Below are positions 11,950 through 64,000 of a stretch of DNA of 64,000 bases, one piece after another. The first letter of the stretch is position 1; each line of letters starts with the position of its first letter. A program made the position numbers and the translations under genes. The stretch lies in NCBI GenBank assembly GCA_973895155.1, contig OZ316895.1:19978803-20042802 (forward strand), read 5' to 3'. This stretch comes from Marsupella aquatica. Its lineage: Eukaryota > Plantae > Marchantiophyta. The notes below the pieces were generated by a model. The model had not been told where the DNA came from, did not search any database, and saw only the letters and a list, made by a program, of their open reading frames with translations.

Positions 11950-12272
11950 TGTGGGGAGAAATCAGATCAGGAAATACACTCCAAACATACATGTGCTCAA
12001 TAGTTACGTGGTTCGCCTCAAGGTTGGCTACGTCCACGGGAATACAAAGCTTTATAAATGGTTATGTGTGTACTCAAGCATCACCATAGCTCTCATCTCT
12101 TCAAGCTCTCATCTCTTGCTATATCATTGTGTTCTCTCTTGAGAACTCTCTTGTGTGTTCTCACACCACATAGAAGTTGAAGAGATAAGGACCAACTCTT
12201 CAACTAGGGTTTACTCTAACCCTAGTTAACATACTAACCATAGTTCAACCCAAGACTGAGTTAACCTCTACA
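11950..12272 (-). repeat. 3' LTR of copia element 1
   Basis: Near-identical to 17641-17963. The adjacent PPT (gagtcaagggggagtt on the minus strand) is at about 12273-12288. Confidence 0.97.
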
Positions 12273-12466
12273 AACTCCCCCTTGACTCACGTCTTGGGAG
12301 GGTTCATAACATTGTCTTTTCCTTACAAGTTCCTCCGCGGGAAGTTCAAGACAGTAGGGCCAAAAGACCCTCCCCCTAATGCAAGGGTTAACTAGAACTA
12401 AGCCGTAGCCGATAAGCCATCGGATGGAGTACTCATATAGAGACATTTTCTTGGTTAACTCTATAT

Positions 12467-17640: not shown

Positions 17641-17963
17641 TGTGAGGAGAAATCAGATCAGGAAATACACTCCAAACATACACGTGCTCAATAGTTACGT
17701 GGTTCGCCTCAAGGTTGACTACGTCCACGGGAATACAAAGCTTTATTAACGGTTATGTGTGTACTCAAGCATCACCATAGCTCTCATCTCTTCAAGCTCT
17801 CATCTCTTGCTATATCATTGTGTTCTCTCTTGAGAACTCTCTTGTGTGTTCTCACACCACATAGAAGTTGAAGAGATAAGGACCAACTCTTCAACTAGGG
17901 TTTACTCTAACCCTAGTTAACATACTAACCATAGTTCAACCCAAGACTGAGTTAACCTCTACA
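17641..17963 (-). repeat. 5' LTR of copia element 1
   Basis: Near-identical to 11950-12272 and followed by the TSD ATCAC. Confidence 0.97.
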
Positions 17964-18126
17964 ATCACATCAGCATATCAATCTCAGACATTCAACTGCT
18001 TTTTTGTTGTGGGTAAGTGTTTTCCCCCTCTTGTTTGTTAGTTATGGAATTTGGATCACTCCAGACCTTTTTTGGTAGCCTAGAGTCAAACACAAAAGGT
18101 CGTGTTTGTGTATTGCTGTGAACACA

Positions 18127-27322: not shown

Positions 27323-27860
27323 CCCCTATGCAATTGCACAGTTCACTATATATTACTCTGCCGAAGGGCAGAAAGGTCCAACCGGGAGACAGGTTCCCAT
27401 GGCAGAGCAACCCAAGAATTGCACACTGTGAGAATGGAATGGAATGAACATGTGTATAGTCGGGAATAGGAGTACATATAGTGGGACCAGGATGACCGGC
27501 TGGTCCGGTCGTCCGGTCAAAGGTAGAGTCTAACACTCCCCTTTGGATATATAGTGACAACTATATAGACAACATAGACTATACCTATTATATCATGTTC
27601 ATATGAAATACATGATATAAGTACAAGCGAGGTAGACTGCCTCGTTAAAAAACCTTTATCAACTCTAGCTTAGTAAAAACTCTACCAGTGTAGCAGAGAA
27701 AAATATGAGTGCTAAAGGAAAAAGAGTGCAGCCTAACAGTCCTCGTCGTAATAAATGTCAATGTTAAGTAAAGTTAGATGTTATAGTAAGTCTAGCTTTA
27801 ACATGTGTCTCATCAGTAAGTCGTCAGCAGCATATCATCAGCATCATGTCGTCAACATCA

Positions 27861-30800: not shown

Positions 30801-31420
30801 CATGGATTATTTCCAAGAATTGGGGTATTTTAGTTGGCAATTTTGATGTCGTGGGCCTTGTTATTAATTTTCCGCGTGAGCATGCGGTGCATGGGGTGCT
30901 AGCTGGAATGTGGCGTGTATTGATTGGAATGCCACTTGAATTCTTAATTATTTTGCTTAGCATTAATTGGCCGGGGTGGCCGAGGCGTGCATGCCAAAGC
31001 GCGGGCAATTCACTTGTTTGAACATTGTTGTGCAGGCATTCAATATGAGTTACATAAAACCCGCAGGGGTACAAGAAAAGGGTTTCTTTAATGATATTCC
31101 CCGTAGGAGTATTTTCAACCAAGTGTATCACTTCCTGATCTCTGGTATCACCCGTCTGGACATGTAGTCCGTTCGCTCGTATATCTCTAAAACTGAGGAG
31201 ATTACGGGTTGTGTTCGGGGCGAAAATAGCAGATTCTATGTGGATAGCTGTACCCTGCGGGAGTCTAATGGAAGCTGGGCCAAAGCCCTCTTCTATTTGG
31301 CTAGGGCCATTGATAGTGGTTAGGGATCGACGTGAGGGTGTAATCTTGTGAAAAAGGTGTCAATCCCGGAGGATAGTATGCATAGTTGCGCTGTCTATAA
31401 TACATGTGCTGTGACTATTT
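27861..31420 (-). pseudogene. Bianca-like pol: protease, integrase, RT and RNase H fragments with stops and frameshifts
   Basis: CIIDSATMHTIL; [14 protein letters not shown]; HADVCGPI, LIDASTKWS, RVDNA.EF, QNGLAE; RYKARLVGKGFTQQPG, LYGLKQSGRVWY, IYVDDL; GYADAGYLSD, EDNATCI, KHIAPKFF. Confidence 0.93.
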
Positions 31421-34120: not shown

Positions 34121-37100
34121 TGTGAGAATGGAATGGAATGAACATGTGTATAGTCGGGAATAGGAGTACATATAGTGGGACCAGGGTGACCGGCTGGTCC
34201 GGTCGTCCGGTCAAAGGTAGAGTCTAACACACACCTCATTTTGTAGAAAAGAAAAATTGCTTAGCGCCAAATTAGCTACACCGCTAAGTAAAACACAGGC
34301 TTTATCAGTTAACAGTAGTAAAATAGATAAGCATCAGCGGATAGATAGTATCTAAATTGCGTAGGCAGAGAAGAGTCTCATTTTCAATAGAAACTTGATT
34401 TTGAGAAACAGAAGTAGAAGGAACCTAGAAGCGCAATGTAAGTCAAAAGCTTTTAGTTTGATAGGACTCACCATTTCAGCAATGTGGGACATGTATGGCA
34501 ACACTATGATTTACGGGAAGGCTGTGACATTCCATTAAATGATGACAATTTTTGTGCTTTAGGGCCCAGTGTCCAAAAAGCTAGGCAAGGTAGAGATGAG
34601 CATAGAGTGTTGGCCTAGAAGCGCAATTGTGTAATCCATCAATGCAGGCATCCATGTCGGCCAGTTGGATTAGGGCGATATATGTTCACTTTCTATGTAC
34701 AAGTTAGCTATGTGGTGTACCAAATATGGGAAGAGGCTGGATCCTAGTTGTTTGGCATCAATGGGCTGGAATTCATGAGCGAGGCAACCAAGAGAGAACT
34801 TGTAACTCTGCCATGAATGAATGTTGGGCAATAAAAGTAACACAAAACAAGGGAAGAGGAACCAGACAGATATTAGGGTTCCATAAAATGATCACCAGTT
34901 CAACATATCGACAGAAGAAAGAGGGGACTAGTAACGCTACTAGTGGAGGAAAGAGAAGAAATGGAGACAGCTATAGAATAACTCAAGCTCAAGACACCAA
35001 AAACGAATGAATCCATTGAGGATGACAACTCAGAAGCAGAACTAGGAGCAGAACCAAATGAATGGAAGGACGACCAGGAAAGTTATGTGTGGTTCTGTAA
35101 CTAATAACAGTTAATAGTCAGAAACAATCAACAAGTAGAAATAATTAACAATCAGCAATTAGTCTTAGTTGAATAAAAGATTTACAAAACTGAATAAAGG
35201 GTTTGGCAGTTGCAACTGTCAACAGTTAAGTCAAAGACAGGTATGTCTGGACCAGAGTAGAAAAGTATAGGTCAGTTTGGAAGAAAGTGATAAAGGTCAT
35301 TTGTTGTGCAAACTTTCCAGGACCAGAGACTAAAGAGGAAGCCTAGGAAGAGGTCATGCCGGATTGCTAGACCTGGAGGTAGAAATGGAAGCCCATGGAA
35401 GAAAAACCATGTAAAAGAAATTGATTCAAACTCTTGAATAGTTGATGTTGTTGAAGCCTATTTGCAAAACTGCAGGGAGCATTTGATTACATAGTTTATG
35501 TTTCTTGAATGCAAGTAGGTATAAAGGAAAGAAATTGATTGTGAAGAAAATATGGCTAGAAATGCTCACATTTGATAATGGGAAACATAATGATGTGGCT
35601 GGAGCGGTTCTTAAGAAGGATTGACATTATATTGCATGTGAAAATTGTAATTGCAACCCATTAAGAAATCTTTTAAGTTGGAAGGATTAGAATTTTGCAA
35701 GTAATGTTTAAGGAAGAAGACCCAAAGGAGTGAGAAATGAAAAAAAAACCCACCTTTGCTTGGTCATTTAAGCCAAGGAACTGAAATTGAAAACTTTATT
35801 GAGTTTCTTATTTTACCCTGATAAATGTTGTAGTAGTTGAAGAGTTTCTCTACTCGTCATTATTTTAAAATGTGTAGATTAAATAGAAAATTCAAATAGA
35901 TACCAGAAGATACTAATGTATCAAGCACAACTCATCCAAATGTTATTTTCTTTCACATCTATTTTACAACTTTATAAATTATTTGTTTATTTGAAATGTT
36001 ACTTTTTAGTTTTCCATTATTTAGTTAGGAGGTTTAATTGTTTTTCTTTGCCTTACATCAAACACAAATAGTCAAATTTGGTTCTTCTTGCATAACCATT
36101 GTTCTTGTTTGTGACCAATATTGCTGATGTGGCTACACAAGCATCCAGGAATTTTGGAATGAGCTTCCCATGGGGTCTGTAAAAAGTGCAACTAGCAATT
36201 GAGTTTTAAAAGTTTAAATTTTAGTTTCTTCCCCATCTAACATTGGACTCTGACTTATGGATGTGCTGCTAGAAGCGGGGAATGCATGAGATTGCCTTGG
36301 GGAGATATTGGAGTGTCAGGCTCATTGTGAACTGCTTGTTTGTGTGACAGACTCATTTGATATATGCTTGCAAAGTTCTGCATTACTTGTTGATATAGGT
36401 CATTGTGTTGATGTAATGGCCTCATTTTCTGCTATACTAACTCCATTTGTTTAGTGTAAGTTGCCTGGCTGCAAAGTTGTGTGTGGTTGAAGGATGGGAG
36501 AGTGCAATGAAGGAGAAGTGATATTTGTTGAGGGAGGGGAGGTTAGCTCGGAGACCTTGACATCCTCTTCCTGGATGAGCTTACCCAACCTTACGGCTTT
36601 AAGTTATGGATCTGAGTTGTCTTTTGTGTTTAATGATACAAATTCCACTGGACAGTCTTCATGTACAATGCAGTTGTGTTCACCTCACAATGAGCCAAAT
36701 TTTGTGCCTCTTAGTGACCCAATTGAGACCCAATGCAGGTTGAAGTCCCTGTTGAAGTAAATGTCCAAGGATTTAGGGTACTTGCTGACCCTTCCTTGTG
36801 GGATGCAGGGAAAGGGAAAGAGAAGCATGAATCTATCTGAGCACAATTATTCATGGGCTACTAATAGTGCTAACTTGCTAAGGAAGGTATGACAAATGGG
36901 CACAAGTAGCCCACTTGGAGATTTGTCTTTCAAGATGCTAGATGAGCTTCTTAGAAATGTTTTATTTCCCTGGTTTTGTAACTAGATGGCCAGCAATGTC
37001 CTTCATCTTTGCTAGTGGGCAAGATGAACATTTACAACTGTGTTATCAAACACTTGATAGAAATTTCAATATCTTCAAGCATGAATGTTTTATGAAAACC

Positions 37101-45981: not shown

Positions 45982-48058
45982 TCAAGCTCCGGGAACAAAG
46001 CTGGTGGCATAGGCCCAGGCGTTGTTGCTAACGGGATCGGAGAGGTGATCCAAAAGGTTCTCAACAGGTCCCTTTCCGGTGACAATGGCTTGAACAAAGA
46101 ATCCAAACATAGAGAACATGGCGAGTCTTCCATTCTTGAGCTCCTTCACCTTCAGCTCGGCGAAAGTATCTGGGTCACTAGCCAAACCCAAGGGGTCGAA
46201 GTACTTGCCTCCGGGGTACAATTCTCCTCCCTCTCCCACTCCGGGAAGACCGTTCTGGCGGTATCCCTCAACCAAACCCATGAGCACGACCTGGACGGCC
46301 CAAACTGCGAGGATGCTCTGAGCGTGCACCAGGTTGGGGTTTCCCAAATAATCCAAACCTCCCTCGCTGAAGATCTGGGATCCGGCCTTGAACCACACAG
46401 CCTCCTTGAGCTCCACACGGGAGTATTTCACGAGCAACTCTGGAAGGACACAGCCCAAGGCTCCGAGCATTGCCCATCTGCTGTGGATGAGCTGAAATTG
46501 AACCAAACACACATGGAAAGGCTTAATCGAAGGAACAATCAGACAAAACCTGTACACCCAACTACTATCACCACATGTCTACCGAAGTCTGATCTTTGGC
46601 CTGTGCAATGATTGCATGCAAGAAACAAATAAAGAAACAAAGGTCGACGACAATTCGTGATCTTCACATCACATGCCTCAGGATCTCAAGCTTATTGTGC
46701 ACCTCTCAAGCCATCTTCTGGCCATCTCTGGCTTACAAAAATGGTACATTCACGTGTTTTGGGTGTCAAGAAGTAAATAAACTGAGCGTCTCCGGCTCAA
46801 TCAACAATGACGAACACAATGATTAACTGTAAACCATGGTGAAGTTGGAGACCGAAATATTGACACGCTGACACTCACTCTCTGCCTGTAGAATATGGCA
46901 ATCGGGTGTACAATAAAGCAAAAGACAAATGACTGGCTAAGGACGCCTGGCCAATATGTATGACGGGAGAAGACGAACAAATCCGCTAACAAACAATAAG
47001 GAGGGCTCATATAACCAGGCAGGGAATGAAGTACAAAAGGAGACGGGAACGAGACATTACCTCCAAAGCACGGTTCTTGGCGAAAGACTCGGGATCGGCA
47101 GAGAGCCCAGCAGTGTCCCAGCCGTAGTCACCTGGAAACTCGCCCTTCAAGTAAGAGGGAGTCTGGGCGGAGAAGGGGCCCAAAAATTTGGGTCTGTCTG
47201 GGCCATACCAGAAGTCAGCATCCTGCACACAGAAAGAGCCATAGCTAAGGCATAAGGCAACACGAGCTGCCTAAGTAGAATCCGCACTTTGACTTTTCCT
47301 AACACACACGACAATTTGAGTTCTCTCACTTTAAGGGTATTATCTACCCATTCCTAACTAGCAAATTTTACATGATGTATTGCTTCCCGCGATAACTCTA
47401 CATAATAGTTGCAAGACATCCCGGCTCTAACAATCAATGTCATTTCCACCCTACCGATCCAAGTCCCAAATTACCCTTTCCATGGATCCATTACTGACGA
47501 CCTCCAGCGTATTCAAGTCTGTCAATGGCCACCAAGCCTACTCGCACCGACGACCCGGCCAGAAAATCCTACTCATTCGAGTCCTCTCCGTGGGAAAACA
47601 ACTTCACCCATGTACCAACACTTCTCCATTACTTTGCTTTAGAGTATTTCGCTTCCTGTCATTAATTAACACAAGAACAAGACCTACACCTCTACCAAAT
47701 TCAGAAACTGAGAGCTCAATTTATTGGTCAGCTCCCAGATGCCGGCCAAGGGTCTGCCCTTTAACGTCCCCTCGCAACAGCGAACCCCCACACCCCTGAG
47801 ATATGGACCACAAATGACCCTACACTGAGACAAATGATCCCTTCGAGAAAGGCATTCTGTCGACAAAGAAACAACTCAATGATGTACCACAATCACATTA
47901 CAATTGACGACTCCCCTACGCCAAGAAACACTTACCATGGAGACACGGGCCTTGCAGAGGGTGACGCGATCCCTGAGAGCATTCTGGGGTGCTGGTGCAG
48001 CACCCAAGAAAGCCGATCGGCTCACAACATTGGTGGAGAGTAGTGAAGTGGCCGCCAT
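45982..48058 (-). CDS. LHCB3: Light-harvesting chlorophyll a/b-binding protein Lhcb3 with transit peptide; exons 48058-47936, 47222-47061, 46491-45982 (264 aa)
   Basis: [101 protein letters not shown] and a terminal PGA are Lhcb3-type signatures. Introns are phase 0 with GT/AG ends. Confidence 0.93.
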
Positions 48059-48229
48059 AGCTGAAGCAAGCAAGAAGCTCTAATCAATCAATCACAGGAA
48101 GCACGCGAAACGTGATGGATTCTACGAGAAATTGGAATGAACGTCCAAATTCCTCCTGTACAACACCAGTCTAACCTTGCCCAAGCCTGAGAGCGGGAGG
48201 GGGATTATACTCATGATGAAACGAGTGGA

Positions 48230-48325
48230 CGGATAAAGTGCTCCAAAGCAAAATCTCTGAGAGGCGAACCTATTGGTGGGTGCACCATCCATCCAATCTC
48301 TTGAGCAGGGGTTCTGGCCAATCAG
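48230..48325 (-). promoter_or_regulatory. Putative Lhcb3 proximal promoter with CCAAT and GATA/I-box-like motifs
   Basis: GGATAA at 48231 and CCAAT on both strands (about 48272, 48293, 48318), 170-260 bp upstream of the ATG; typical of cab promoters. Confidence 0.4.
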
Positions 48326-48839
48326 ATGGTCTCTTTGCTCTCCCAGAATCACCACTTGTCCCTGATTTTGGCTGACAAATGGATTTGCAAGCCGGGCCCG
48401 GCACTCTGTACGAGAACATAGAAAACATTTACGCCAAAACGGAGAAGGGAAAAGTCCCTATCCTATGCTAGTTTATAGGATCGTTTCATTGTAAATTGGC
48501 GAATCTGAAGAAATGATGTACCTCCGCCTTCGCCAAACCCTTGTGATTTTAAATGTTCCTTCGAAAAGGGCAAATTTATCTAAATGGGCCGAAAAAGAAT
48601 AAGAAGGAGTAAAAGCAAATGAGATCGAGAGAGGATAAATTACAAAGTCAAAAGAAGAGGATAGATTCAAACCCCCCAAAAACTAGAAAAGTGAAGTATA
48701 TTATCAGATAACGATCTACTGTACCACTTCCAATAGTGTGATGGGCTACCAGAACACATCTAGTGTGGTAACTAAATTTGCAAGTGGAAGGTGGATGACC
48801 TATAGTAGCTCTAATTTTTTCTCAGATGATACTTTATTG

Positions 48840-49281
48840 TGTAGGAGTGAAATGTGACTGAAAACAAGACAATCACCTTTGAAAATTTGTAAATATCTCA
48901 ATTTGTAATGAGAATTGGCCATTCAACTCCTTGAAAAGATAGTTCCACAGGCCAAGACTAGCAGATTCCATTGCAAATCAAGGGAGAAATTGAAGTTCAA
49001 AGTTTGTTGATAAAAACTTTTTGAAACAGAAAAAATGGTCCAGTGAGTGATGGGGTAATCTTTGGAAATCCACAGTTCTCTCATTTCTTATGAAAGTTGA
49101 ATTATTTGTTTTCAAACCTTCCATTTCCAACAAACCCAGGAACAGCAATTCTGCTGCATATCAAGAGAGAAATTGAACATCTAGTTTCTGATCAAAATGG
49201 AAGAGCATGAGCAAGTGATAGTGTGAAGGATGTCACGGCCTGTTGGGATTATATGGTTCACGAGCTCAGTCCTATCGAGCT
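48840..49281 (+). mobile_element. Second copy of the Harbinger-like non-autonomous element, with an internal ~185-bp subrepeat
   Basis: Homologous to the segment from 44050. Right end ggttcacgagctcagtcctatcgagct|TCA; atcaag.gagaaattgaa occurs twice. Confidence 0.6.
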
Positions 49282-49790
49282 TCAGATTCTAAATTGCAAG
49301 AAAAAAAACTATCAATTTTGGGGGCTATTTTTAGTGGAAGCTGAACTTGTATAAACCATCAGCTTTGACAAGATGCTTGAATAAATGATCCGTGACAATG
49401 ATGAAACATTACTTTTCACGCCTGCTTAGCTTTGTATAAAATTCACCTTTCAGTTGATTATCTAAGTAATGTTTGCCATTGTAAACAAAAAATGTTTACC
49501 CTCGATGTCAAAAGTGCTCAGTCTATCGAGTAAACCACAGCGGTCCATCCAAGCATCAATTTTAGTTTAAAAATATTTGGAAAACATGAAAACAGCCCAA
49601 ATAGAGGATGGTTCATCATGATGAAACATGATCTATTTAAATGCAAGCATAAAGGTATCCGAATCTAATACCTCCATGTGGTGTTCTGGGTTAAAAGGTA
49701 ATAGTGCTTCAATCATTCTAGTAATTCACTACTGAAAGCTACTTTGAAAGCCTACTGTCTAGAGTAAAGCCTCTAGACCTGAACTTCTCA

Positions 49791-50001
49791 TGGCATAATT
49801 GAAAGTGAGGGTGAAGATTAAAACAGAGGGGCGAGATGAACTGGAAACAACTCCAACTAGGGCATAACTAAGAGTAAGGGTGCAGACAAAAAATAATAGA
49901 GAAGGGGGAGAGATGAAAAATAAACAGTCAAGGGCATAACTAAAAGTGAGGATGCAGACAAAAATAAGAGAAGGGGCAGAGATGAAAAAGAACCAGTCAA
50001 G
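49791..50001. repeat. Degenerate ~70-bp tandem repeat x3
   Basis: ggcataa.t..aagt.agg.tg.aga...aaa...aga.gggg..gagatgaa occurs three times. Confidence 0.85.
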
Positions 50002-52339
50002 ATTCTTGCAAGGTACTTGTTTGTCCTCACCTCTATTTCCATTTAAGGAACAGGTAATCAGGCTAGTGGTGGGAAAGGAAACAAAGGGGAGAATACTTGG
50101 AAGTTTGTGAGTAATTAACAGCGATAAGCTAACCACTTGGTCAGCTCAGGTGGCTTGGGGTAACTTGTCTCAAGTTCAATTCCTCTTAGTGTGTCTCTTA
50201 CAATCGGTTCTGCTCTGACTGTAAAATAGTAGGTTTACCATCTTAGAAGGGTGTTCAATGTGTATTGTGCCACAGGCACTTGTGGTAGTTATAGGAATTA
50301 CATGAAAAATAAATAAACCAGGGGTTTCACTTGCCTATAAGTGCAGTTCACTTTTAAGAAAACTTAAATAGCAATAAGCTATAGCTAGCATGTGAATTGT
50401 CACACTGAGGTCAAAAACATTGTCAAGTTGCAACCATGATCTCTTTTATTCCTTGGTTTTTTAGATCTTGAAAACCAACCATTCCAAAGCTTATGGCAAT
50501 CTTACTTGGTCTACCTCAAGCGAGAATTGATAATCCTTTCCCTGGTTACCTTTCCAGAATGTCAAACAATCAATTGCACTCCTTCAGGATCTAGAATTAC
50601 AAATGAATGTGAGGGAACACTTTTCATTTCATTAACTTTTTTGTTACATATGAATGTTTTAGAACACGCAGAATCTCGGGTGGGTACTGGATTCCATTTA
50701 GTGTTGCCTGGTGATGCTCGTTCCCTGGCCTTAAGCTGTTTGGAGTTTGGTTGAGGGTCCTTTTCCTGGGCCTCCTTCTGACCTGTTGTGTGGTGGTGGC
50801 CACCATGAGTCAGGTTCTCTTGGACTGGTCTCGTGTATTGCTGTTTACTTATCAATAAAAGTTCTTTCAACACAAAAACAGAACCAAACACTTCTAACCT
50901 TGGATATGGGGGACTGAAAGTTTTCCCTAAGACTGATGACTGAACTCTTTTATTCCTCTGAGAGGATTCAATCGAGACCTTGACATAAATCAGTACAAGA
51001 TCAATATCTCTGCATTGATTGACTTAGTTATACCTCTTACACAGCAAGTGAATTTTTAAGTACTTAAGAATCCTTGAAGGAAAACAAAGTGAGTGCTCAT
51101 CTTCTAAAGGGTACCTACTGTAAGGTTTCCTTTTCATACCGTCTTCCAGTGAGCACAGGGCCTGTGTTCAGAACGAGCTTCAGAAATCGAAATTCTATTC
51201 CGCGCAGAGCCCGGGCATTTCAACAAGAAGTCTCAATTTCAATTCAGAAACAACATTTGAATCGAAGCAGACTTTCAGACGTAGACATTCGTTCTTAGCC
51301 CAACGCTGAAAACAATGTCTCATATGTGTCTGCATTCAGTGTGCCACCTGCTTTGAGGATCACGGTCGTGGTAATATTTTGGGTGTGAAATAAACCAGAG
51401 GGAGACATGTTCGCATACGTTGGGAGTGTCATCTATGATGCTGTCAAATTAAATTTCTTTAACTCAAGAGCGGCAAGAGCAAATTTCCACAAGATTGCCA
51501 AAGAAAACGCACTGTTCCAAGGCAACTAAGGTGCAGCAAATATAAAAATCTGTCAATAAAAACAAAGTATTCACATCGTCACAATGAACTTAGGGCTACC
51601 AACCGCGCCATCAGCAATTCCTCGCCAATTCATTTCCTGCTTACTGCACATCACTACAATCTTTCCGGGACTGTAAATTTCTGCAATTGGGGGTCCGGGT
51701 ACTTAAGCATTTGTGACAACCACAATCAATGACATAGATCTCATTGTTTCCTAGAAGTCGATCCCTTCTTTTACGCAGCAAATCATACATCTTACAAGGC
51801 TTCGTCAGATGCTTCTAATTTCCATTCAGATATTGTGGACTCGTGGAGAACCACCAAGTCCGGATTGCCACTTTTAAGATCATTTTCTCGACTGACTTTG
51901 TGTGCGAGATTGCATTAAACGAGACACAAAATTTTCTTGTGAGAATTTAGACCGACAGCCAATTTCCATTCATCCCCAGGATTTCTTTCCCATTGCACAC
52001 ACCTGTGTGCGAAAATATAACCTCTCCTCGAAGTCTAAGTGAACAAATTAAGTGCAGATATACCCTCACTCTCACGAACAATCTCTCAAATCCTATTACA
52101 AAGTTTGCTACAGCTCTAGGAAGTTTGCTACAATTCAACAAATCCAAGTTGTTAGTCCCACGCCAGAGAAGTTTTGTAAAACGACAATTCACCCACAGCC
52201 TTCTGAGCTCTCAAGTGCTCGCGCTCTGCCCAGTCCTTTCTGCAAACATTTGTTAGATAAGCCTCACATCTTGCTCATTGCCTGCAACTAAAATAAGTCG
52301 TTGGGAACCTCAAAAACTAATTAGAGTGGTGCAGATGAC

Positions 52340-52489
52340 TGCGGCAACCAGCAAATGGATACAAATGCCGATCTGACCACCTTGCCTCCTGCGGCAACCA
52401 GCAAGTGGATAAAAATGCCGATCTGACCACCTTGCCTCCTGCGGCAACCAGCAAGTGGATAAAAATGCCGATCTGACCACCTTGTCTCC
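52340..52489. repeat. 50-bp tandem repeat x3, near-perfect
   Basis: tgcggcaaccagcaa(a/g)tggata(c/a)aaatgccgatctgaccaccttgcctcc at 52340, 52390 and 52440. Confidence 0.95.
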
Positions 52490-53814
52490 TGGTGCCGACA
52501 TGAGAATCAACCTAGAGGTGGGACGGGAGTCATTCCAGCAGCTCAGTGCCTTCCAGGCATCAACATAAGGTTAAAGCTATTTATCGGTCCGGTTGCAATA
52601 TTGATTGAAAAGCCCCGAACACAGCTCAGTTCTCTGGGGAGAAGGAGGGTCTGGTGGTTTTGCATTGCTTTTTGCATTAGCCAGGTTTTGCCGGGGGTTT
52701 TCCTTGCAGAACTAGGAGAAAGCAAGAAGTAGAGAGCCTTGGAATTATTCAAACCTCAAAACTGTTGTCCAGCCTGCAGAGTCCTCGAGTTGGCTTGTTC
52801 GACCCACTAAGATGTCCCCTGCCGTCTCCGATATTGAACAATTGAAAGTACACAGGAGGGCCCTGCCATCTCATTAATAAAAGAAACACAAATGGTTAAG
52901 AAGCTCTTCCCTTTAGCAGCATCCTGCCATGCCATCTCCGAAACCAATGTGACAAGAAACACAAACGATTAAGAAGCTCTCCTCCTAATCGAACGAGCAA
53001 CACGCCCAACTAGTAGCATTCCGAACAAGCAGTCCCCTGAAAGAAAAGCATCTTGAACGAGTAGCATCACGCACATCCACTCAAACTAACAGCCCGATCT
53101 CACCTCCTTCATCGCCTGCCACCTCGCAGGCTCAAATTGAGTTTACTATTCGTACTCAGTATCTACCAGAATATCTCCTCAAACGTTTAATTAATAAATA
53201 CTAGAGGGCTCTGTAAGAAAGACAACGGCTAATCGATCATAGCAGTATATGATTCTCATATAGCACAACTGATCTATTATCAATCCTTCAGGTAGGATAC
53301 GGCACAGCTAATCCACCACCACCACAATTCAGTGACTAGTGACTGCTGAATGCACATATCGTGATATACCTTCATCTGGTGATATCCTGCAGCTCGTTTT
53401 GAACAGTTCCGAGTGCAAGATTCCAGTGGGGCTATTAGGAGGATGCTCTCCCAGCGGAGCTAATAGGACTCTACACATGAGTTTTGATTATATCCCAACT
53501 ACCCTGATAGAGATGACGACCAAAATAGATCTTGCAAAAAAAAGAATTATATGCTATCTCCAGCTTGTATTTGCCTCATCCCCATTTTTTGTTCACCCTC
53601 ACTTTGTCCTTATTTTTGAGTCTAGCTTTGTCTTTATATGGAGTTGCGGTTTAGAGGCTTCACTCTAGACCCTAGCCCTCGAAAGTAGCTTATGTTCGCG
53701 ATCTACTAGTCAGATACTCAATTCCCTTCAACAATGTTAACTAGTTCAGACCATTTGCTCACAAATATTGGACAGGAGGAAATCTACTCTTCCCCAAAAT
53801 CTTTACCCTCGGAA

Positions 53815-53905
53815 TTCTCAAATGACCCCAGTAGAGAACTTCAAAATCTCCCAAAAACAATACCCTCAAGGTCCTCAAATGACCCCAGTAGGCAACTTCA
53901 AAATC
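53815..53905. repeat. Short direct duplication with ~57-bp period
   Basis: ctcaaatgaccccagtag..aacttcaaaatc x2. Confidence 0.8.
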
Positions 53906-55141
53906 AGCAGTGCAATGTCCAGCCCATTAGTGGCAGCTTCAACTTAAACCTAAAATGTAACACTATTGTGCATGTCTGGCACGTCTGTAGCCACTGAGCA
54001 CTCAGCAAGTTCTTCCAACTCTTGCAACACCGCAAAATTGGACGAATAGTTCATCGACCCCCTCTAGTATTATTGGTAACTTCTAGATAAAGTGACTTGC
54101 TAACCCTAGGGTGGCTTAAGATGACAGTCATAGTCTGAGTGTGTGTTCTTTGAACATAAACAGAGGTGACGACATTCAAGCCCGCTACATCATTTCCAGA
54201 GATTCACCTTGCCCCCAATCCCCCAATCCCCATCTTCCAATTGCACCCCTAACTTCAGTTATTTTTTAGCCATGGTCCACATGCTTCACTCTAGACCGTA
54301 TGCAATGAAGATTAGCTTTTGATCGATTGCGACTAAGTCAGATTGATGTGTAAGATATGTATGAGTGCCATCCCTTGAGGGAGGTTTTCAAACATTCCGC
54401 TTGCTGCAGGTTTAGTCCTAGTGCTCACTTTGGATCTGCCCGTCCCCACCCACGCAAGTCTCACGCAAGGTCCGCACTGAGGTCTCATTGAATCAGGCTT
54501 GCTAACACTTAAATAAGGCAGTTCTTAAGTGTGTCAAATTGCCTCACAGTTTAAGTTGGTTCACAAGATTTTTAGGAATACCGGGTAACCTGTTGGTTCC
54601 CTTGCGCTTCATTATTTCACCATTAGTTGCCCCATGTAAGCAACTTGGTGTCACCTGCTCATCAAACTATGTGCATGAAAAATACATCTTTTTCTTCCCT
54701 AAAATTGTTTGTACTATATTATTGGGATGTGGAGGGACGCTATTTGGATTGTTGCTCACACATAGGAATGAGTATGCTTGTTTTTGCTCCCGGAGATGTA
54801 GTTTTTTAATCAATTTAATGACTACTCCACCCCATGGCTTTTAATCAAGTCCTGCGGACCACCCCACACATTCTCTCTTTCTGATCTATGGGTGAATGTT
54901 GTCACCACTTTCCCACTTCTTCTACACAACCCACCATGCCAAAATTATGAAGTTGTAGTGTGTAGTGAAATTTGTTAGCCACAAAGATACACTAGGGGAA
55001 CGGAAGCTCAAAATATTGATCACAAAAGAACCACACGTACAAAGTTTTAACTGTAAAACCGAATCCATATCTCTTGATGCAAAAAGTGTGCACACTACAA
55101 AGACAACCCAACCTCTTGTTGTGCTTCTAACACCTACACCG

Positions 55142-55276
55142 ACACTGAGGACACAACCATGATCCACTAGGAATCACCTGCAATGATGGTGTCAAACATG
55201 ACATGTGCCATCCTCTAGAACATTTATCACAAATCAACATAGTAGTTGTTCCCTAAGCAGATCCACACAACATACA
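55142..55276 (-). pseudogene. PHD finger (C4HC3) at the C-terminus of the gypsy integrase
   Basis: Reading through one TAG gives CMLCGSA*GTTTMLICDKCSRGWHMSCLTPSLQVIPSGSWLCPQC, in the integrase frame, with a terminal stop at 55127-55129. Confidence 0.9.
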
Positions 55277-55279
55277 TTT

Positions 55280-56500
55280 CAAGCCAGCACGAACATGTGC
55301 CAAGCTTGGATCTATTGTACCATCAATGTTGGGAAGGTGACATGGTGCACAGTTGCGCACATGATCCTTCCAAACCATACCATTGCGTCCCTCCAACATC
55401 AGGACACCAGAAGGCAACACTTCACGCACATGTAAGATTGTCCGGCCTGCGGTCACATCAAGTGTCGTGGGTGCTGTCTACTGCAAATAAACATAATCAC
55501 CAGGATGAAATCGTTGAATGCTTGCACGATAACCTCCTCCACAAATAGTGGCATACCTCAAAGTATCACGATGTTGGGCAATGGCAAGGTTGTCAAAATC
55601 CATGGGCATCACTCTCTGAAATACCCGTGCTGTCTCTGAACACACCTTGACCCAAACATCAGGATCATCCAAGTTCACAACTAGTGCAGCATCACGACGA
55701 ATAGCTGCTGGCAAATCTGGCTCTCTACCATAGAGCAAAAAGTAAGGTGAGAAGGATGCAAGTGATGCTTGCCGACTGAAATGGTAGCCCATCGCTAACC
55801 AAGGTAGCTAGAGATCCCAATCTCCCAAATGACCAACCTACAAGCCATACTTACGCAATCATCTCTTCACAGTTTGCACAACTCTCTCAGCTAATCCATC
55901 TGCCTCAGGATGATCACGAGAGGTAGTACGATGATCAATCAGAGCTTGTTCACACAAACTCCTAAACTCTCCACGGAACTCAGTTCCCTGATCAGTCAAC
56001 ACCTCAGCTGGTGCTCCAAAATGACTGAGTACGCGATCCAAAAATGTAGTAGCAACTCCTCCATTGGCTTTATCTGGCAATGCCACTAGCTCAATCCACT
56101 TGGAGAAATGCTCCACCATGACCAAAACATACCGATTATGGCGTTGGGTAAGAGGTAATGGACCAGCAAAATCCAAACTCCAACGATATCCCAAACCCTT
56201 GATCGGTAACGGGTGCAACTGGGGAGTGGGAGCATTAAATGATGCTCTCACTCTATCACATACCACACACTTAGCTATCAACTGTTGGACATGAGTGTGC
56301 ATACCACACCACCAATACTATGTCTGCAGCAAGCTATAAGTGCGCTTCACACCAAAGTGACCCAACTCCTCGTGTGCATGTCGCACCAAATGTACTCGTT
56401 GTGATGGTTTTGGTACCACCAACACACTACCATCATGCAGTACTCTCAAAAGATAGTTTCCCTCCCATCGAAACCTCTTGGCTCTCTATAGAACCCTGTC
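55280..56500 (-). pseudogene. Gypsy integrase (H2C2 zinc finger, DDE core, C-terminal region)
   Basis: HEELGHFG...CVVCDR, WSLDFAGPLP, VMVEHFSKW, VLTDQGTEF, HPEADGLAER, FSPYFLLYGREP, F.PGDYVYL. Confidence 0.93.
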
Positions 56501-56758
56501 ACGTTCTTTGGCATCAACACTGCCAACAATAGAACCACTGCGCAGATATTCCAACACTCTCACATCATTGTGAATATCTTGCTGTCCAGAAGTTACCTCA
56601 CCAACATCCACATTTGAAGACTCATCATCCACTCCATCCAATGAGGTAGAGTCCATAGATCCACTGTATGCTCGCACCCAACAAAGAAAGGTAGATGCAT
56701 GCCATCCTGGCACCATCTCCTTATCTGACTCATCATGCCATCTGGCTCCAGTCTCATC

Positions 56759-58207
56759 CTATTGACTGGTACATGGATTGCGGCTTAATCCATCTGCATC
56801 CAAGTTCACTTTTCCAGGCCTATGCACCACCTGGAAATCATACTCCTGTAACAACAATGCCCATCGTGCAAGCTTCCTTGTAAGCTTGTCAGACTCCATT
56901 AACCACTTAAGAGGCTGATGATCAGTGATCAAGGTGAAGGGATTACCAAACAAGTAGCAATGAAAGTGTGCAACAGCCCACATTGCTGCCAAACACTCTC
57001 CCTCATAAGAGCTATACTTAGCCTCTACTGAATTGTTTGATCTACTGGCATAAGCCACAACAAACTCATTCCCCTCATCATCCTTGTGAGTCAACACTGC
57101 TCCAAGTCCTACTCCACTCCAATCAGTGTGTAGCTAAAATGGTCTGCCTGAAATGGGTCTTCTCAAAATAGGGGATGATGCCAACCTTTGCTTCAACTCT
57201 TGAAAGGCATGCTCCTAGTCATCACCCCAAATCCATTCCTGATCCAACTTAGTGAGTATGGTCAAAGGTTTAGCAAGCTGGCTAAATCCTTTAACATACC
57301 TCTTGTAGTAGCTCGCCAATCCCAAGAATGCACAAACTCTACTCACATTAGTAGGACAAGGAATCTGTGTAATGGCCTCCACTTTAGTCTGTTGTACACC
57401 CAATCCCCCTGGGTATATAGTGTGGCCCAAATACTCAATCTGGTCTTGGAAGAATTTACACTTGCTAAAATGGAGCCCATGTGCTCTCAATCTTTCCACC
57501 ACAATCTGCAAGTGTTGTTGATGTTCTTCCACAGTAGAAGAATAGACCAAAATATCATCAATATAACATCTGACAAAATCCAAACCTGCAAGGATTTGAT
57601 CCATGACTCTCTGGAACTCAGCTGGTGCATTCTTCAACCCAAATGATAAGAATAACCACTGATACAAATGATCTTTGCCATAAGAATCAATCCCCCAAAA
57701 TGTTGTCTTGGACCTGTCAGCATGCCTAATTGGAAGCTAATGGTACCCTACCCTCAGATCCAATGAACTGAAAACCTTTGCATGCCCCACAACATCAAAG
57801 ATCTCCTCAGGTGTGGGCATGTCATATCTATCAGATTTTGTCTGGCGATTAATGGGTCTATAATCACCACACATGCGCCTATCTGTGTAATTGCCATGCA
57901 CATCCTTCCTGGCTGGCAGCACTGTGGCAGATGCATACTCCCCATATGAAATCTCCACCAATCCAGCCTCCAACAAATCTTGAGTTATGCTTTGAATCAG
58001 AGCTCTCTCCATATCACTGTAATGGTATGGCCTATGAAAGATTGGCGCATCACTAGCCAATTCAATCTGAATACCAATACCCTTTAATGTCCCCAAATCC
58101 TTCATGCTAAATGCAAAACAATTCCAGTAACTCTTCAAGAATCGATGCATGCGACGTCTCTCCTCCCTTGTCAACTTAGGGCCAAGCTGTGGTTCCCAAC
58201 TCTCCAC
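56759..58207 (-). pseudogene. Gypsy reverse transcriptase and RNase H
   Basis: YIDDILVYS, KCKFFQDQIEYLGH, FLGLASYY, PF*LHTDWS, VAYASR, EGECLA..WAV, TDHQPLKWL, HRPGK.N.DADGLSR. Confidence 0.95.
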
Positions 58208-58439
58208 TAAATCCCTAATATCTCTTTGTAGGGTAGAAGAGATAGCCGATGATTGCTATTTAGCAGTAGATTGAGCAGTCCCTTCCTACTCAACAATCTG
58301 TCCAGCCTTGACCAATCCTGCCATAGGTCCATGGACCGTCTGCTCACCCCCAACTGTGGTCAGTACTATCTTAGTGGACCGCAAGCTCACCAAGGGACAA
58401 TCAGTAATTCTAGCAGAGCACATCCACAACTGTTTAGCT

Positions 58440-59400
58440 ACTCCCAAGCTGATAATCCAAGTCAAACAATTCAAATCCATTGCTTGACCAAGAACCTGGC
58501 GCCGCAAATCCTATGACACAGAGGCAACTGCAGTGGTGCTAGTCAAAAATCCCATAGCACGCTCCCTCTCATCAGCAATAGGCTCCACTAACTGTCAGAG
58601 AGTTGTGTCCCACACAAGTCCAGGGCCACCTGCTTTGAATGCATATGAAGCAGAGTGGCTTACAAGAGTGGGTAATGCACAACATGGGCGTCCAACTACA
58701 TTGACCACTGCCAATGGAGTCTATCAGGTTGGGTCACACCCTGTGCACGACGCCCTAGATGCAAAATATCATCCACCACTAAAGCTAGTGAGCGTGGAAT
58801 GTTGTCAAATGCACGCTTCAGCACCTCACATGGGATCAAATTAGTCCACCACAAGCCTAGACGATGTGCATGAGAACCCACACGTGCAACATCCAATAAC
58901 ACAACAGGTCCAATCCAAGACCTCACCTGGTGAACACTGGCAACAATCCGACTATGATCATCACCTAACAATGGCACATTCTCCAAAATGTATGTTGGAG
59001 ACTATGTCTGATGTAGCTAGAGATGACGCAGCACCCGGAACATCTCCCAAAATAATACAGAGCGTGGATCATGAAAGCCATTCCCAACGCCAGCTCTAGA
59101 TTGGCCCTGACATGGCCAACCAGCAATCACCAAATCAATGGGGCCAACACAATGCAGATGATCCGCCCCCAGCAATGAAATATCAGCAGGTAGTGCATGC
59201 TGATAACCACGAACAGCATCCACTGGCAGCAACTGTGGATATCTATCCACCAGCATAGCCACATGTTGCAATGAGACCCTCCGTGCTGTCTCATCTGTCA
59301 CCACATACAAATAACGATGCACAGGAATTTTTGCCTGAAGAACAGCAGCCAATCCAGTGTTAATCCCACCAAAAAGATCCAATAAATAAATATCCTCCGG
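58440..59400 (-). pseudogene. C5 cytosine DNA methyltransferase domain (DNMT3-like) inside the gypsy polyprotein
   Basis: Motif I LLDLFGGI (~59370), IV IDLVIAGWPCQGQSRAG (PCQ at 59107-59115), PRSVLFWE, VI ILENV (~58980), VIII SHAHRLGLWWTNL, IX EPIADERERAMGF, X RRQVLGQAMDLNCLTWI. No introns; four stops and one frameshift near 58715. Confidence 0.9.
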
Positions 59401-59759
59401 TGGATACTGCCAAGCAATAGGAGTGGTATCCAATGGTGAAAGAGTCACAGGTCCATCTGCAAGAGACCTCTCTACTCCTGACTGTGGTGTAAAAGCATGA
59501 CGCCATGCATCATGTACCAATTGTGCTACTGCCTGTGGCAAGGCCTATGCAGTGCCCCACACTGGTGGCACAACACTGCCAATAGGTAATCCCCGCATGA
59601 TGTGCTCCTCATGAGACTCCTCCAATGGTGGAACATCTACTGCATGCGCATTACCCTCAATCAAATCATCAGGTCCAGTAATTACACCACTGAATGCTAC
59701 CAAAGACAATGGTGTGGATTTAGGACCTCCCATAGGTCCACTAAATCTCACTGGCAATT

Positions 59760-60180
59760 TGCTCAATCGAGCATCTCCTGACTGCCAATCAGGTCTATAT
59801 GACACTGATTCCTCCCAAAAATCAAGAATAAATCCCATGGGGTAGAGCACTGTACATCCCACCAACACATCATATGACTTTGCCTTAGTCATAATAACTT
59901 GCGCCTATATTTGTGAGCTATCTATGGTATGACCTTCCCGAATCCTCAAATCAAAAGGTCTCCTAGTAATGTGTTGTGTAGGTGTAGGTCCCCCCAATGA
60001 AGTCTGAATGGGAAAGGGACAATCCTCCAAATCCTCTGGACGCAATCCCAATCCACGTATGGCAGACTTACCCAACATCAAGGGCTGAGCACCAGTATCC
60101 AGTAACACTCTCTCTGGCTGGTATACTGCCCCAGAAGGCCCAACTAATCGGAAGATACCACTCCGATTATCCAATGACAC
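59760..60180 (-). pseudogene. Retropepsin-type aspartic protease of the gypsy element
   Basis: Catalytic motif RVLLDTGAQPLMLG and downstream YDVLVG..L in the same frame. Confidence 0.85.
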
Positions 60181-60881
60181 AACACTAGGTTTAAACCTAG
60201 TCCTCTCAAATGCAGGGCGTGCTGGTAAATCCACCAACCTCGCTGCTGCATCCCATGTCTCACTAGTAGCAGTAGGCGGCATGGTCTTCACTGCTTCAAC
60301 ACTGCAAGCTGCTTTTGCATGGGAAGCAACCACTGAAGGTGCCCTCAAAGAGTGTAGCTGCCAATCTGAACACTTCTGCAGGACCAACTCCCAAGTTCAA
60401 CATGTCTGTCGCTGAAAATAATGGGGTGCGTACCATGGCAGTAGCCGCCCCCAGCAAGGTACCTGTCATCCTTGCTGCATCACTACCTGATTCTGCCAAC
60501 TTACCCACGCCAGGGTTTGTCCGAACCGGGTTCATAGAGGCAGTCTGAACTGTCTCTGACAATGTAAAAGATTGAGGAAGCTTTGTTTGCCGACGTGCAT
60601 CCCCCTCTGTGGATCTAACTCCACTAGTGCTCCTCGGGGCTCAAGAGCTTTGGCTGCCCCACATGTCAAACCTGCTAATGCATCAATATGTGTAGTGCCA
60701 CACATGAATCCCATGGTGGCAAGGTCTCCATCAGCTCCATAAGATGTGGAAGGACCATGGGATGTAGAAGGTCCATAGGATGTAGATGCCCCATCACCAG
60801 AAGTAGGTCTCACCTGGGAACTAGCCATGGCAGCTAGTTGTTGCTCCAATTGAGCAATCTTAGCATCCTTTGGATCTATGG

Positions 60882-62198
60882 TTATAGCAGGGGCAGCATC
60901 ACCTCCCTATCTCCCTGCATGTGGCATGCCACGACCACGTCCACCACCCTACCCCCTCCTCTTCCTCTTCTCTGATCATGTGTACGGCATCCTCCTCTCC
61001 GTAACTCAGGATGGAGTAAGAAACACCTATCCTTGGTGTGTCCAGGAGCTCCACAATGATCACACTGTCGTTGATCAAGCGCTGATGCTCCTCTTGATCC
61101 TCTATGATCTAGGCAATATCTTTGTGCATGATCCCCACCACAGGTCCAACATCCTGACTGTTGTCTAGCATAAGAGGGCATAGGTCTCTGGTTGGTAGAC
61201 TCTCGTGCAGTAGGCTTCTTCCTCTAGCTCTTTCGTGTAGTAGGCTATGGTGTGGATGTAGATGCAGCCTTTGGTGCTTCCTTGCCAAATTCGGAAGTCA
61301 CCACCTTCTCATTCACCATATTGAGCTCAATGCGCTTAGAAAGGGTAAAAACAACTGCTAATGTGGGATCTGCATCCCTAAGTAGAGTGACATCTCTCAC
61401 TCTGCGTCGCAATTCTTTGTCCAAAATTGCATACCAAAACTGGACTGCTTGAGCCTCTGTCACTCACTTGGTGACAGTGATCAATCTGCGCATATGAGTG
61501 TATGCCTCACGTAGACTCTCTCCAGTCTTGCGCTGGAACTCCTAGAGACCCTTCAACTGATCAGTTCTCACACCCTGATAGTTCTGCTTTAGTACCTCAA
61601 AGAATTCCACCATAGGGTTAAATGCTGGTGCAACTCCTGTTCCTGTCACAATCACACCGGTAGGAGTAGCGGTGGATGCTGCTGGAGTGCTGCTGGTGGA
61701 TGGTGTGCCACTCTGGCTAGTGCTGCTAGAAGAAGCAGCAGCTGTGGCAATGGGTTGGGAAGCCGCACTAGTGCCATAGGTGATGGACACGTAATTAGGC
61801 GACCAATGATGCCTCCATGCCTCAATCTCAGCCAAATGAGCCTTCCGAAACTCATGGTAGTCATCCATGGGTGTCCCCTCCAAATGCTGAAATAATCCCT
61901 TCTATGCCATGAAAGGGGTAAACAACATGGCGTTACGCAATGTCTGCATATTGCACCACGTATCAAACTCCTGGATGAAGTCATCTAGATCAATTGTGCC
62001 AACTGCACCAGAGTATCGTCGTGGGCCCTTCGTAGCCTCGTACATCTCGTCCATATCCCACAACAAAGGTGCAACCACCTGATGACGAGGAGAACTGGTC
62101 ACTAAGTTCTCGTCGAAATCACTGTCTGAAGCTGCACTGCTGACTGCTACCAATGCCGTTGGACGAAAATGCGCCCCATTTCGAGTGAACCAGTTCAT
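60882..62198 (-). pseudogene. Gypsy Gag with two zinc knuckles
   Basis: Four ORF pieces in one frame: RYSG..LDDFIQEFD, F.RKTGESLREAY.HM, CWTCGGDHAQRYC and CDHCGAPGHTKDRC followed by RG-rich sequence. Confidence 0.8.
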
Positions 62199-64000
62199 CG
62201 TCCATCGGGTAACCCAGCAACACCAGAAGAATCCGTGGTGACCAACCTAACCTAATCTATATGCTAACCCTAAGGGCAATCTATCTCTGTCAGCAACACA
62301 AGCACTCAGCATGGTGTGTTGGGCATCACTCCAACATCACCAGGAGAGAAATACGTAGCACAACTAGAATGTCTGGTTGCAAACCATCACTCCTATAGAA
62401 TCAAGCGCCCACGCCAAACTAACATGGCGCATAAACAGGAAGCACATGTGGAGAGGATCCAATCAACAAGAAGATCAATAGTGATCATACATCAATCAAA
62501 CAATGTTCATAATGTTTAATGTGGGGCCTTCATAATAGGCCTCTCAATGTTCAATGTCGTAGCTAAGGATCCATGCACAATTGGTTCAATCCATGCATCT
62601 AGATGGATTCAGAAGCATCAAAAACCTTTAGGAGCTTATGATTTGGCCCAAAATGGCAATCTAAACAAACTAGAATGTGTATAAAATGCCTAAATGCTCA
62701 TTCTATTAACATCAAAGTGGAAATGAGTGTGTGTACACAAGAGCACTTAAGAACCACATAGTTGAGCGCATGGGGAAGGAATAGCTTTGGGATGGGTGAC
62801 CTCTCACTTGTAGTTCTGCACCAAAATGGCCGCTTCAAAATCAGCAGCTTGCAACTACTCCTCACGTACCAGCGGCTTACTGGCCCGCCCGCTCCTACTC
62901 CGCCCTCACGCCCCTCGTCCCGAGTTGCCTCGAAGCCTCGAAACATCGAGATGAGCCAAAGAGTGAGCCCGCAACGCTTCGATTTCACAACATTCAGAGT
63001 TTCCCCGAGAGTTCCGCCCCCTGTTTCCCTTCACAAAAGTTCGCGGCGGAGCAAAGTACAGTCCGTCTCCCGCATCGACGTACTGTCTTCGCAGATCTGC
63101 AACGAGCGTCGGTTTGGCAACATTCAAACTTTGCCTTCACAAAACGCATCAACATTCCTGGCGGGTGGATCCTTCCAGATCGGCGCACGACGGTCGCTTC
63201 GGATCAGTGCCAACAACGTACAGTCCGCACCGCCAAATCAGCAACATGTGACAGTCATTTCCTTCACAAAAATGTGGATGTCGCTTCTACTTGACAGCCG
63301 TCTCGATTACACTTAGCGCCGCGTCCCTTCGCGAAACCATTGGAGCCCGATTTGGCAACATGCAATAGTCGTTTCCTTCCAAGAAATGCAGGTTCAGTGT
63401 GCGGAGTGCATCGGTCTTCGGCAAGACTACAGATCCAGCAACATTTGCCGGATCGATCCCTTCACACATATGCGGGCGACAGCAGCACATTGTCCAATCG
63501 CAAATCAGCAGATCAAACATTCACCCCCCACAGAGCACCGCACTCAATCTAGTTGCAGCCAATTGGTACACAAACGATTAGAGCCACAGACAAGCTACAG
63601 ATCTGGCAAACCTCCAACTCCAGATCCGCTCAAGAATGAAACTCACACGATCTCAACTTGGATCCACATACCGGCGATCCAATCAAGCAATACAATGCAC
63701 GATCCGAGATACCACGAACCATCGTCGAACACAATCAAACTGAAAATCAAAGCTCTGTCCAACAACAACAGAGTCCGATGCCTGATCTTTCAATGTAATC
63801 TCAATACAATCGGCACAATGATCCCGGTCCACAATACCCCATCAATCCCGCACCGATCCGATCACACATGTATGTCAAGCCAACGCACCTTGCACTACTC
63901 AAGGAATCCACGTTACACAAGCGGAGCTCACAGCCACCATAGCCACACTCAAGCTTCACTCTCTCCAAGGCTCAACATTGAAAGATGACCTTTCAATGCC

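Follow-up and report, generated by a model that had tools for sequence, protein, structure and literature searches.

It is established that chromodomains target integration. PHD fingers are carried by many retroelements, and for them the literature consulted here goes no further than to propose such a role. In Gypsy-7a_cRei, a 15.4 kb element of Chlamydomonas, a PHD finger in the Gag-Pol was proposed to limit harmful insertions (Craig 2023, PMC9940879); PHD fingers also occur in the REM1, CR1 and Chlamys elements, and have been called widespread or common in retrotransposons (PMC6673714, PMC8557442). A different group of gypsy elements encodes a DNA methyltransferase. KnitGypsy-Dnmt3, from Klebsormidium nitens, has a DNMT3-like domain in its Pol and DIRS-like split repeats (de Mendoza 2018, PMC5890265), and the name Gypsy-DNMT3 has been used recently (bioRxiv 10.64898/2026.05.21.726589). 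With Fig. 4c set aside, the text and readable supplements of PMC5890265 make no mention of a PHD finger. Among the chromoviruses, REXdb includes Tcn1, which is self-priming, as well as Chlamyvir and Tekay (PMC6317226).

PHD fingers on gypsy Gag-Pols, reader-plus-writer retrotransposons, and each of the single ingredients discussed below are already in print. A literature search, with subscription papers, Repbase and theses outside its scope, yielded no paper with a PHD finger on Gypsy-DNMT3, with self-priming of this family or with its CA-NN-TG junction, and none on the Gypsy-DNMT3 family in bryophytes; the accessible parts of PMC12344493 and PMC9033089 contain nothing on PHD fingers. The pairing of PHD finger and DNMT3, the range from chlorophytes to mosses and the details of the end structure appear to be new.

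Here we analyse a copy of such an element in the window, by which we mean the whole 64,000-nucleotide stretch of DNA under study. The findings add liverworts, mosses and chlorophytes to the range of Gypsy-DNMT3, which had been described from one alga. The family occurs in high copy number, Marchantia and the volvocine algae supply named members, and the PHD finger sits at the tip of the integrase, so that a direct test of targeting is within reach.

Organization of the element

The features of the window copy, in the direction of its coding strand, are as follows.

63797..64000, minus strand: 5' terminal repeat, probably its 3' part, cut off by the window edge (contig depth and a weak match)
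63785..63796, minus strand: predicted self-priming primer-binding site of 12 nt, complementary to 63975-63986 (12/12)
60882..62246, minus strand: gag-like region with two CCHC knuckles (seen by eye in the translation)
59971..60117, minus strand: aspartic protease, LDTGA at 60102-60088 (motif; PF13650 19.8 bits, under the cut-off of 24.3)
58436..59400, minus strand: DNMT3-like C5 cytosine methyltransferase, between protease and reverse transcriptase (PF00145 41.1 bits, cut-off 22)
57230..58120, minus strand: reverse transcriptase (RT), YIDD at 57565-57554 (PF00078 99.4 bits)
56840..57229, minus strand: RNase H (RH; PF17917 119 bits, PF17919 108 bits)
55541..56407, minus strand: integrase (INT), made up of an H2C2 zinc finger plus a DDE core and interrupted by several in-frame stops (PF17921 55.3 bits, PF00665 53 bits)
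55313..55540, minus strand: SH3-like small beta-barrel with one internal stop, taken as the integrase C-terminal domain (model pLDDT 71)
55142..55276, minus strand: PHD finger (C4HC3) at the integrase C-terminal end, the last Pol domain (PF00628, PDB match, model)
55253..55255, minus strand: premature TAG within the PHD finger, peculiar to the window copy (translation and contig depth)
55127..55137, minus strand: 3' break point, where the copy leaves family sequence just past the PHD finger

The order gag-PR-RT-RH-INT is that of Ty3/gypsy elements, and the top PDB match of the family profile was Ty3 Gag-Pol (E 1.7e-47). One minus-strand frame holds the end of the methyltransferase, RT, RNase H, integrase and PHD finger; the three plus-strand frames at the locus hold nothing. 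The gag-like region, which gave no Pfam match, is common to full-length related loci, and the protease region is likewise found in related loci. In the methyltransferase the motifs DLFGG, GWPCQ and LENV are retained, and the reading frame is disrupted by stops and by a frame change between 58759 and 58717. An open homologue, P0097, 81% identical, had human DNMT3A as its best PDB match (E 3.6e-11), with DRM2 (4e-3) and HaeIII (4.5e-5) among its other matches. Judged by sequence, the enzyme can be described as a DNMT3-related, unrearranged methyltransferase inside Pol. This domain, which defines the family, was unmentioned in the initial annotation of the DNA.

That annotation had instead singled out the PHD finger, as a complete C4HC3 domain at 55142-55276, fused to the integrase C-terminus and missed by the ORF track. 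Its coordinates proved exact, and the strand, which it had not named, is minus. The codons of the first and last Cys are 55276-55274 and 55144-55142, respectively, with the His at 55207-55205, the Gly two residues before it at 55213-55211 and the TAG at 55255-55253; all eight of the eight zinc ligands are present. When the peptide was repaired with X for the stop and submitted to the Pfam search that the annotation had suggested, PF00628 matched over its full profile (positions 1-47 of 47) at 42.5 bits (E 6.7e-11), far beyond chance and above the Pfam cut-off of 24 bits. The listing of ORFs of at least 100 aa indeed contains no PHD finger. Besides sharing a frame with RT, RNase H and integrase, the domain sits behind the SH3-like barrel, in the place where chromoviruses have a chromodomain; Pfam detected no chromodomain in the RH-INT-PHD frame at E ≤ 0.1.

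The AlphaFold model of the PHD finger (pLDDT 82.6) is matched by PHD structures at 1.0-1.6 Å, and the best single-domain PDB match by sequence is ATXR5 (5VAB; E 2.6e-13). The PHD clusters that matched in the ESM Atlas came from Chlorophyta and Streptophyta and were all unnamed (score 0.96). As for the small barrel between the integrase core and the PHD finger, its model matched generic Tudor, KOW and SH3 structures at Z 6-8 and the foamy virus integrase (4BAC 307-375) at Z 6.4, with an rmsd of 4.3 over 68 aligned residues, which fits an integrase C-terminal domain. The idea that the barrel is a second reader of the Tudor type was rejected, a Z of 6-8 being generic for the fold.

The window copy is dead, with 10 internal stops in the RH-INT-PHD frame in addition to the frame change in the methyltransferase. 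Nine of the 10 stops in this frame (55127-57298, minus strand) are TAG, and the CG observed/expected ratio is 0.33, both as expected from methylated-cytosine decay. At position 55255, a letter other than that of the stop makes up 79416 of 81389 (98%), 19298 of 19496 (99%) and 16904 of 17683 (96%) of the summed contig depth in the runs X1, X2 and X3, respectively, and is also found in the sole X11 contig; the TAG inside the PHD finger belongs to the window copy, not to the family. Summed contig depth, which is a sign of a high-copy repeat and not a copy number, is 2-3 x 10^5 in the element versus about 10^2 in the flank. At the 3' break point it drops, in X1, from about 88,000 at 55135-55149 to about 350 at 55120-55134, and a low-depth contig spans 54321-55164 with zero differences. 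The copy has lost its 3' end, and with it the polypurine tract (PPT) and the B-A-B repeats described below. This truncation explains why no long terminal repeat pair turned up, whether 48000-64000 was searched or the window was compared with itself by BLAST. At the other end, repeat-level depth extends over 63629-64000, and 63797..64000 has a weak match to the A repeat of a complete relative, L069 (45 nt at 76%, E 7e-4).

The PHD finger is a trait of the family

Searching with the integrase tail returned 79 long proteins and another 116 of near length; in this set, which was seeded with the PHD finger and is biased for that reason, a complete C4HC3 motif is present in 177 of the 195 homologues. 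For a less biased set we used 80 metagenome loci caught by two patterns upstream of the PHD finger, 65 of which were long enough and 15 were not. In 64 of the 65 loci the PHD finger lies right behind the SH3-like domain (63 by script, and L021 on inspection), and the only exception, L060, lost it through deletion. Intact relatives keep the domain; the initial annotation had named a stop before it in intact copies as fatal to its claim, and this is not what they show. The fusion is in frame in open proteins from algae to liverworts. The PHD finger is a trait of the family and not of the window copy alone.

The nearest named proteins are from Marchantia (74-78% identity), followed by Calypogeia and Klebsormidium, and named homologues of the methyltransferase come from Marchantia, Calypogeia and Sphagnum. 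An integrase tree was built with FastTree from 102 of 186 sequences, comprising all named, all short-tailed and 30 random others; its outgroup consisted of three unlabelled gypsy integrases. The tree places the chlorophyte relatives (Tetrabaena, Volvox, Pleodorina, Monoraphidium and others) in a clade of their own, and the partial INT-PHD protein KFL_015960010 of K. nitens falls into the window's clade with a support of 0.965. In that clade Pol stops 1-13 residues past the PHD finger. Pooled dN/dS over 26 distinct, partly decayed related copies, a crude measure, was 0.48 for the PHD finger (bootstrap 0.31-0.71), compared with 0.45 in the SH3-like domain and 0.28 in the integrase core; so measured, the PHD finger is under purifying selection.

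DNMT-like sequence was found in 66 of the 79 long homologues, with none detectable in the other 13; among 29 testable loci, 25 have it upstream of RT. Its position varies: among the 79 long homologues, it precedes RT in 3 and stands between RNase H and integrase in 61, and the two orders largely track the integrase tree. In chlorophyte-type proteins (P0214, P0215, P0189 and 73 tails of 290-400 aa), a Tudor-like stretch can be seen by eye behind the PHD finger. A further stretch resembles an amino-methyltransferase and has an SPWF/SPPF motif in 25 of the 73 tails, and 3 of 12 proteins matched phage DNA methyltransferase families (best E 3e-7). Counting their DNMT3, such elements would have two methyltransferases alongside the PHD finger.

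In Marchantia, about 16 gene models that carry the label hypothetical or DNA methyltransferase (e.g. Mp_4g09160 and Mp_8g17980) correspond to protease-DNMT pieces of the element. More generally, many Marchantia gene models labelled DNMT or PHD are pieces of it.

Terminal repeats and priming

Two relatives, L069 (1679-10805) and L037 (1637-9335), were found with both ends, the former giving an element length of about 9 kb. Both have the form A-coding-PPT-B-A-B, start with TGTCA, end with ACA, and are flanked by 4-bp target duplications, AAGG and ACCT. At their inner B|A joint, the right end is followed by two bases and then by the left end (CA-NN-TG). This joint motif occurs within 900 nt after the PHD finger in 20 of 49 loci versus 38 of 1124 control windows, a count in which the motif derives from the same loci and some loci are one insertion repeated. 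Integration possibly proceeds from a circle cut at the B|A joint, which would explain the A-coding-B-A-B form with its 4-bp duplications.

The bases that follow the A repeat are complementary to bases inside the repeat, over 17 nt in L069 (2017-2033) and 11 nt in L037 (after 1926), and in both the complementary partner lies about 28 nt behind a TATA box. The 12-nt pair 63785-63796/63975-63986 of the window copy is placed in the same way. We infer from this arrangement, which resembles the self-priming signature of Tf1 and Tcn1, that the family probably primes itself in place of using a tRNA site.

Relation to described elements

The window element is best filed under Gypsy-DNMT3 (the KnitGypsy-Dnmt3 type), because it has a DNMT3-like domain and its complete relatives have split direct repeats. 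The likeness to KnitGypsy-Dnmt3 lies in this DNMT3-like domain within a gypsy Pol and in the split A-coding-B-A-B repeats of L069 and L037. Whereas KnitGypsy-Dnmt3 is known from K. nitens, the relatives described here come from Marchantia, Calypogeia and Sphagnum, and the family includes a chlorophyte sister type with the DNMT between RNase H and integrase. Like the family, EpiLTRs are LTR elements that combine a histone reader with DNA methyltransferases, but theirs are a chromodomain and a DNMT4-sister enzyme, and the available text states that they are distinct from Gypsy-DNMT3 (bioRxiv 10.64898/2026.05.21.726589). With the chromoviruses the family shares a chromatin reader at the integrase C-terminus and, with Tcn1 in particular, the predicted self-priming; it differs in having a PHD finger and not a chromodomain, a DNMT domain, split repeats, and target duplications of 4 bp where those of chromoviruses are mostly 5 bp (PMC6317226). 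By position the PHD finger resembles a chromovirus targeting module; by domain the element is not a chromovirus.

One claim of the initial annotation found no support. It had cited the Selgy clade of Selaginella as a precedent for PHD-bearing gypsy elements. REXdb, whose table may not have screened for PHD fingers, gives Selgy a tRNA-Ala primer-binding site, a length of about 5 kb and no extra domain (PMC6317226), as against the self-priming signature and roughly 9 kb of the family here; only the 4-bp target duplication is common to both, and our literature search turned up no paper joining Selgy with a PHD finger. The precedent in print is Gypsy-7a_cRei, which has a PHD finger in a gypsy Gag-Pol as here and for which the legend in PMC9940879 names no DNMT. 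Phygy was considered as an alternative placement. It is similar in size and has no extra domain in REXdb, and was rejected on its NCGN target duplication and tRNA-Trp primer-binding site (PMC6317226), the duplications being AAGG and ACCT in the two complete copies (2/2).

Predicted histone-contact residues of the PHD finger

PHD fingers of the ING and BPTF type, which read H3K4me3, have a cage Trp two residues before the zinc-binding His. The initial annotation had noted Gly at this position of the window PHD finger, and the family agrees: among the 177 PHD fingers the residue is Gly in 155, Ala in 15 and Trp in one. A Gly here argues against a me3 cage and does not by itself establish me0 binding.

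For ATXR5, the residues that contact H3 have been described: D41 and D44 for Arg2, V59, P60 and G62 for the Ala1 pocket, and L39 (PMC5499861). That numbering agrees with the letters of the 5VAB sequence, so the contacts could be mapped by alignment, and they correspond to L66, I82, D84, I102, P103 and G105 in the window PHD finger. The Ala1 pocket is kept (I102, P103, G105), with I82 in place of the small residue L39, and in the Ala1 loop of the 177 PHD fingers Pro is found in 152 and Gly in 140. Of the two acids for Arg2, D41 is kept as D84, the Asp after the third Cys (165/177), and D44 is lost (S87; Asp in only 16/177). ATXR5 is the best single-domain match of the PHD finger in both sequence and structure, with the Ala1 pocket and the Asp41 equivalent in common; the family differs from it in the Ser for Asp44, in having fewer acids, and in its fusion to an integrase where ATXR5 has a SET domain.

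In the structure search, ATXR5 ranked first (Z 9.4, rmsd 1.4, 51 aligned), followed by DPF2 (8.9) and ORC1b with unmodified H3 (8.8), and ARID5 (5.8), TAF3 (5.5), plant ING2 (5.1) and BPTF (5.0) ranked lower; this order goes with sequence similarity, from which it is not independent. Neither ING nor BPTF was among the 60 best PDB sequence matches. The nearest solved structures are mostly of unmodified-H3 readers, and near matches such as KMT2D PHD2/3 were solved with non-histone partners (9ATN). Since the cage Trp is absent and readers of unmodified H3 rank above ING and BPTF, a canonical me3 cage, and with it H3K4me3 reading by the family, is unlikely. From residues and models, H3K4me0 binding is predicted.

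The charge of the domain varies within the family. The window PHD finger has one acidic and three basic residues, and the median net charge is +2 for the 13 proteins of the window's clade versus -4 for the 136 of the long-tailed chlorophyte type. A basic PHD finger with few acids would be a poor surface for the basic H3 tail, which counts against a tethering role. Even in ATXR5, the PHD finger contributed only minimally when nucleosome binding was assayed in vitro (PMC5499861).

What the PHD finger may do

The explanation we favor, with a probability of about 0.55, is that the PHD finger at the integrase end binds the unmodified H3 N-terminus and holds the integration complex on chromatin that lacks H3K4me3. 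The protease would free INT-SH3-PHD as a single protein; the P-x-G-x-W loop would grip H3 Ala1 and the Asp after the third Cys would grip Arg2, with Lys4 fitting a narrow, ATXR5-like backbone pocket. In working copies, the PHD finger would fill the slot of the chromodomain in chromoviruses. Insertion would be directed away from active promoters, and the methyltransferase of the element may afterwards mark the new copy. In Chlamydomonas, intergenic insertion of Gypsy-7a_cRei is 2.6 times over expectation (Craig 2023, PMC9940879), a bias that may come from selection.

In the manner of the ADD domain of DNMT3A, the PHD finger could instead read H3 on behalf of the methyltransferase, which would then be licensed to methylate the new copy, or its flanks, where nucleosomes lack H3K4 methylation; we hold this to be distinctly less probable than tethering. 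The co-occurrence of DNMT and PHD finger, counted above for the long homologues (66 of 79) and for the testable loci (25 of 29), would fit such a partnership, as would the placement of the DNMT directly before the integrase in 61 of the 79 and the description of algal and protist DNMT3s as being without companion reader domains (PMC12344493). In the window's clade, however, RT and RNase H stand between the DNMT and INT-PHD, and in 13 of the 79 homologues a DNMT could not be detected. No methylation was seen with KnitGypsy-Dnmt3 in yeast, a result its authors call inconclusive (PMC5890265), and the CG ratio of 0.33 in the element cannot tell self from host methylation.

It is also rather doubtful that the PHD finger of the bryophyte clade is mainly a non-histone module, binding nucleic acid or another protein or stabilizing the integrase. 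Such a role would suit its net basic character and few acids, the loss of the D44 equivalent, and a constraint no stronger than that on the SH3-like domain (0.48 versus 0.45). Against it, the best-kept residues besides the zinc ligands are those that contact H3 Ala1 and Arg2: the Asp is present in 30 of 31 short-tailed proteins, and of 26 close copies, 25 keep the Asp, 25 the Gly and 22 the Pro.

In ING-type readers, the residue three before the third Cys forms one cage wall. A Met at this position in 134 of the 177 PHD fingers would be compatible with reading of H3K4me2/3 and insertion into active chromatin, as would the 25 of 86 Gypsy-7a_cRei insertions that lie in UTRs (PMC9940879). We regard this as very improbable, given a cage Trp in only 1 of 177, the lack of an aromatic among the eight commonest residues just before the first Cys, and the low structural ranking of me3 readers. 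Finally, although unique DNA begins right past the PHD finger in the window copy, the idea that the domain is a host exon or chance neighbour of one decayed copy is refuted by repeat-level depth over the entire PHD finger, by the loci, and by homologues with an in-frame fusion in open proteins from algae to liverworts.

A wider scenario is put forward as speculative and probably too far-reaching. An old green-lineage gypsy clade would have rebuilt the logic of DNMT3A from parts: an H3K4me0-reading PHD finger on the integrase picks promoter-free chromatin, and a co-packaged DNMT3 methylates the new copy. The element would be self-primed and would integrate from a circle that its DDE integrase cuts at the internal CA-NN-TG junction, and chlorophyte members would add the Tudor-like and amino-methyltransferase stretches.

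Other features of the window

An Lhcb3-like chlorophyll a/b-binding gene lies at 45982-47100 (minus strand), about 8 kb from the element, its best plant PDB matches being Lhcb3-type chains. Together with the nearest homologues of the element, this gene indicates that the host is a land plant of an early-branching lineage. No tRNA gene was found in the window. Remnants of other, distantly related retroelements were seen at 30325-30993 and at about 13300-14970 (both minus strand), with an integrase of 23% identity and RT fragments. The window also contains a direct repeat of 324 nt at 98% (11950-12273 and 17641-17964), a repeat of 116 nt at 97% (27427-27542 and 34121-34236), and three tandem 50-nt units at 52339-52491.
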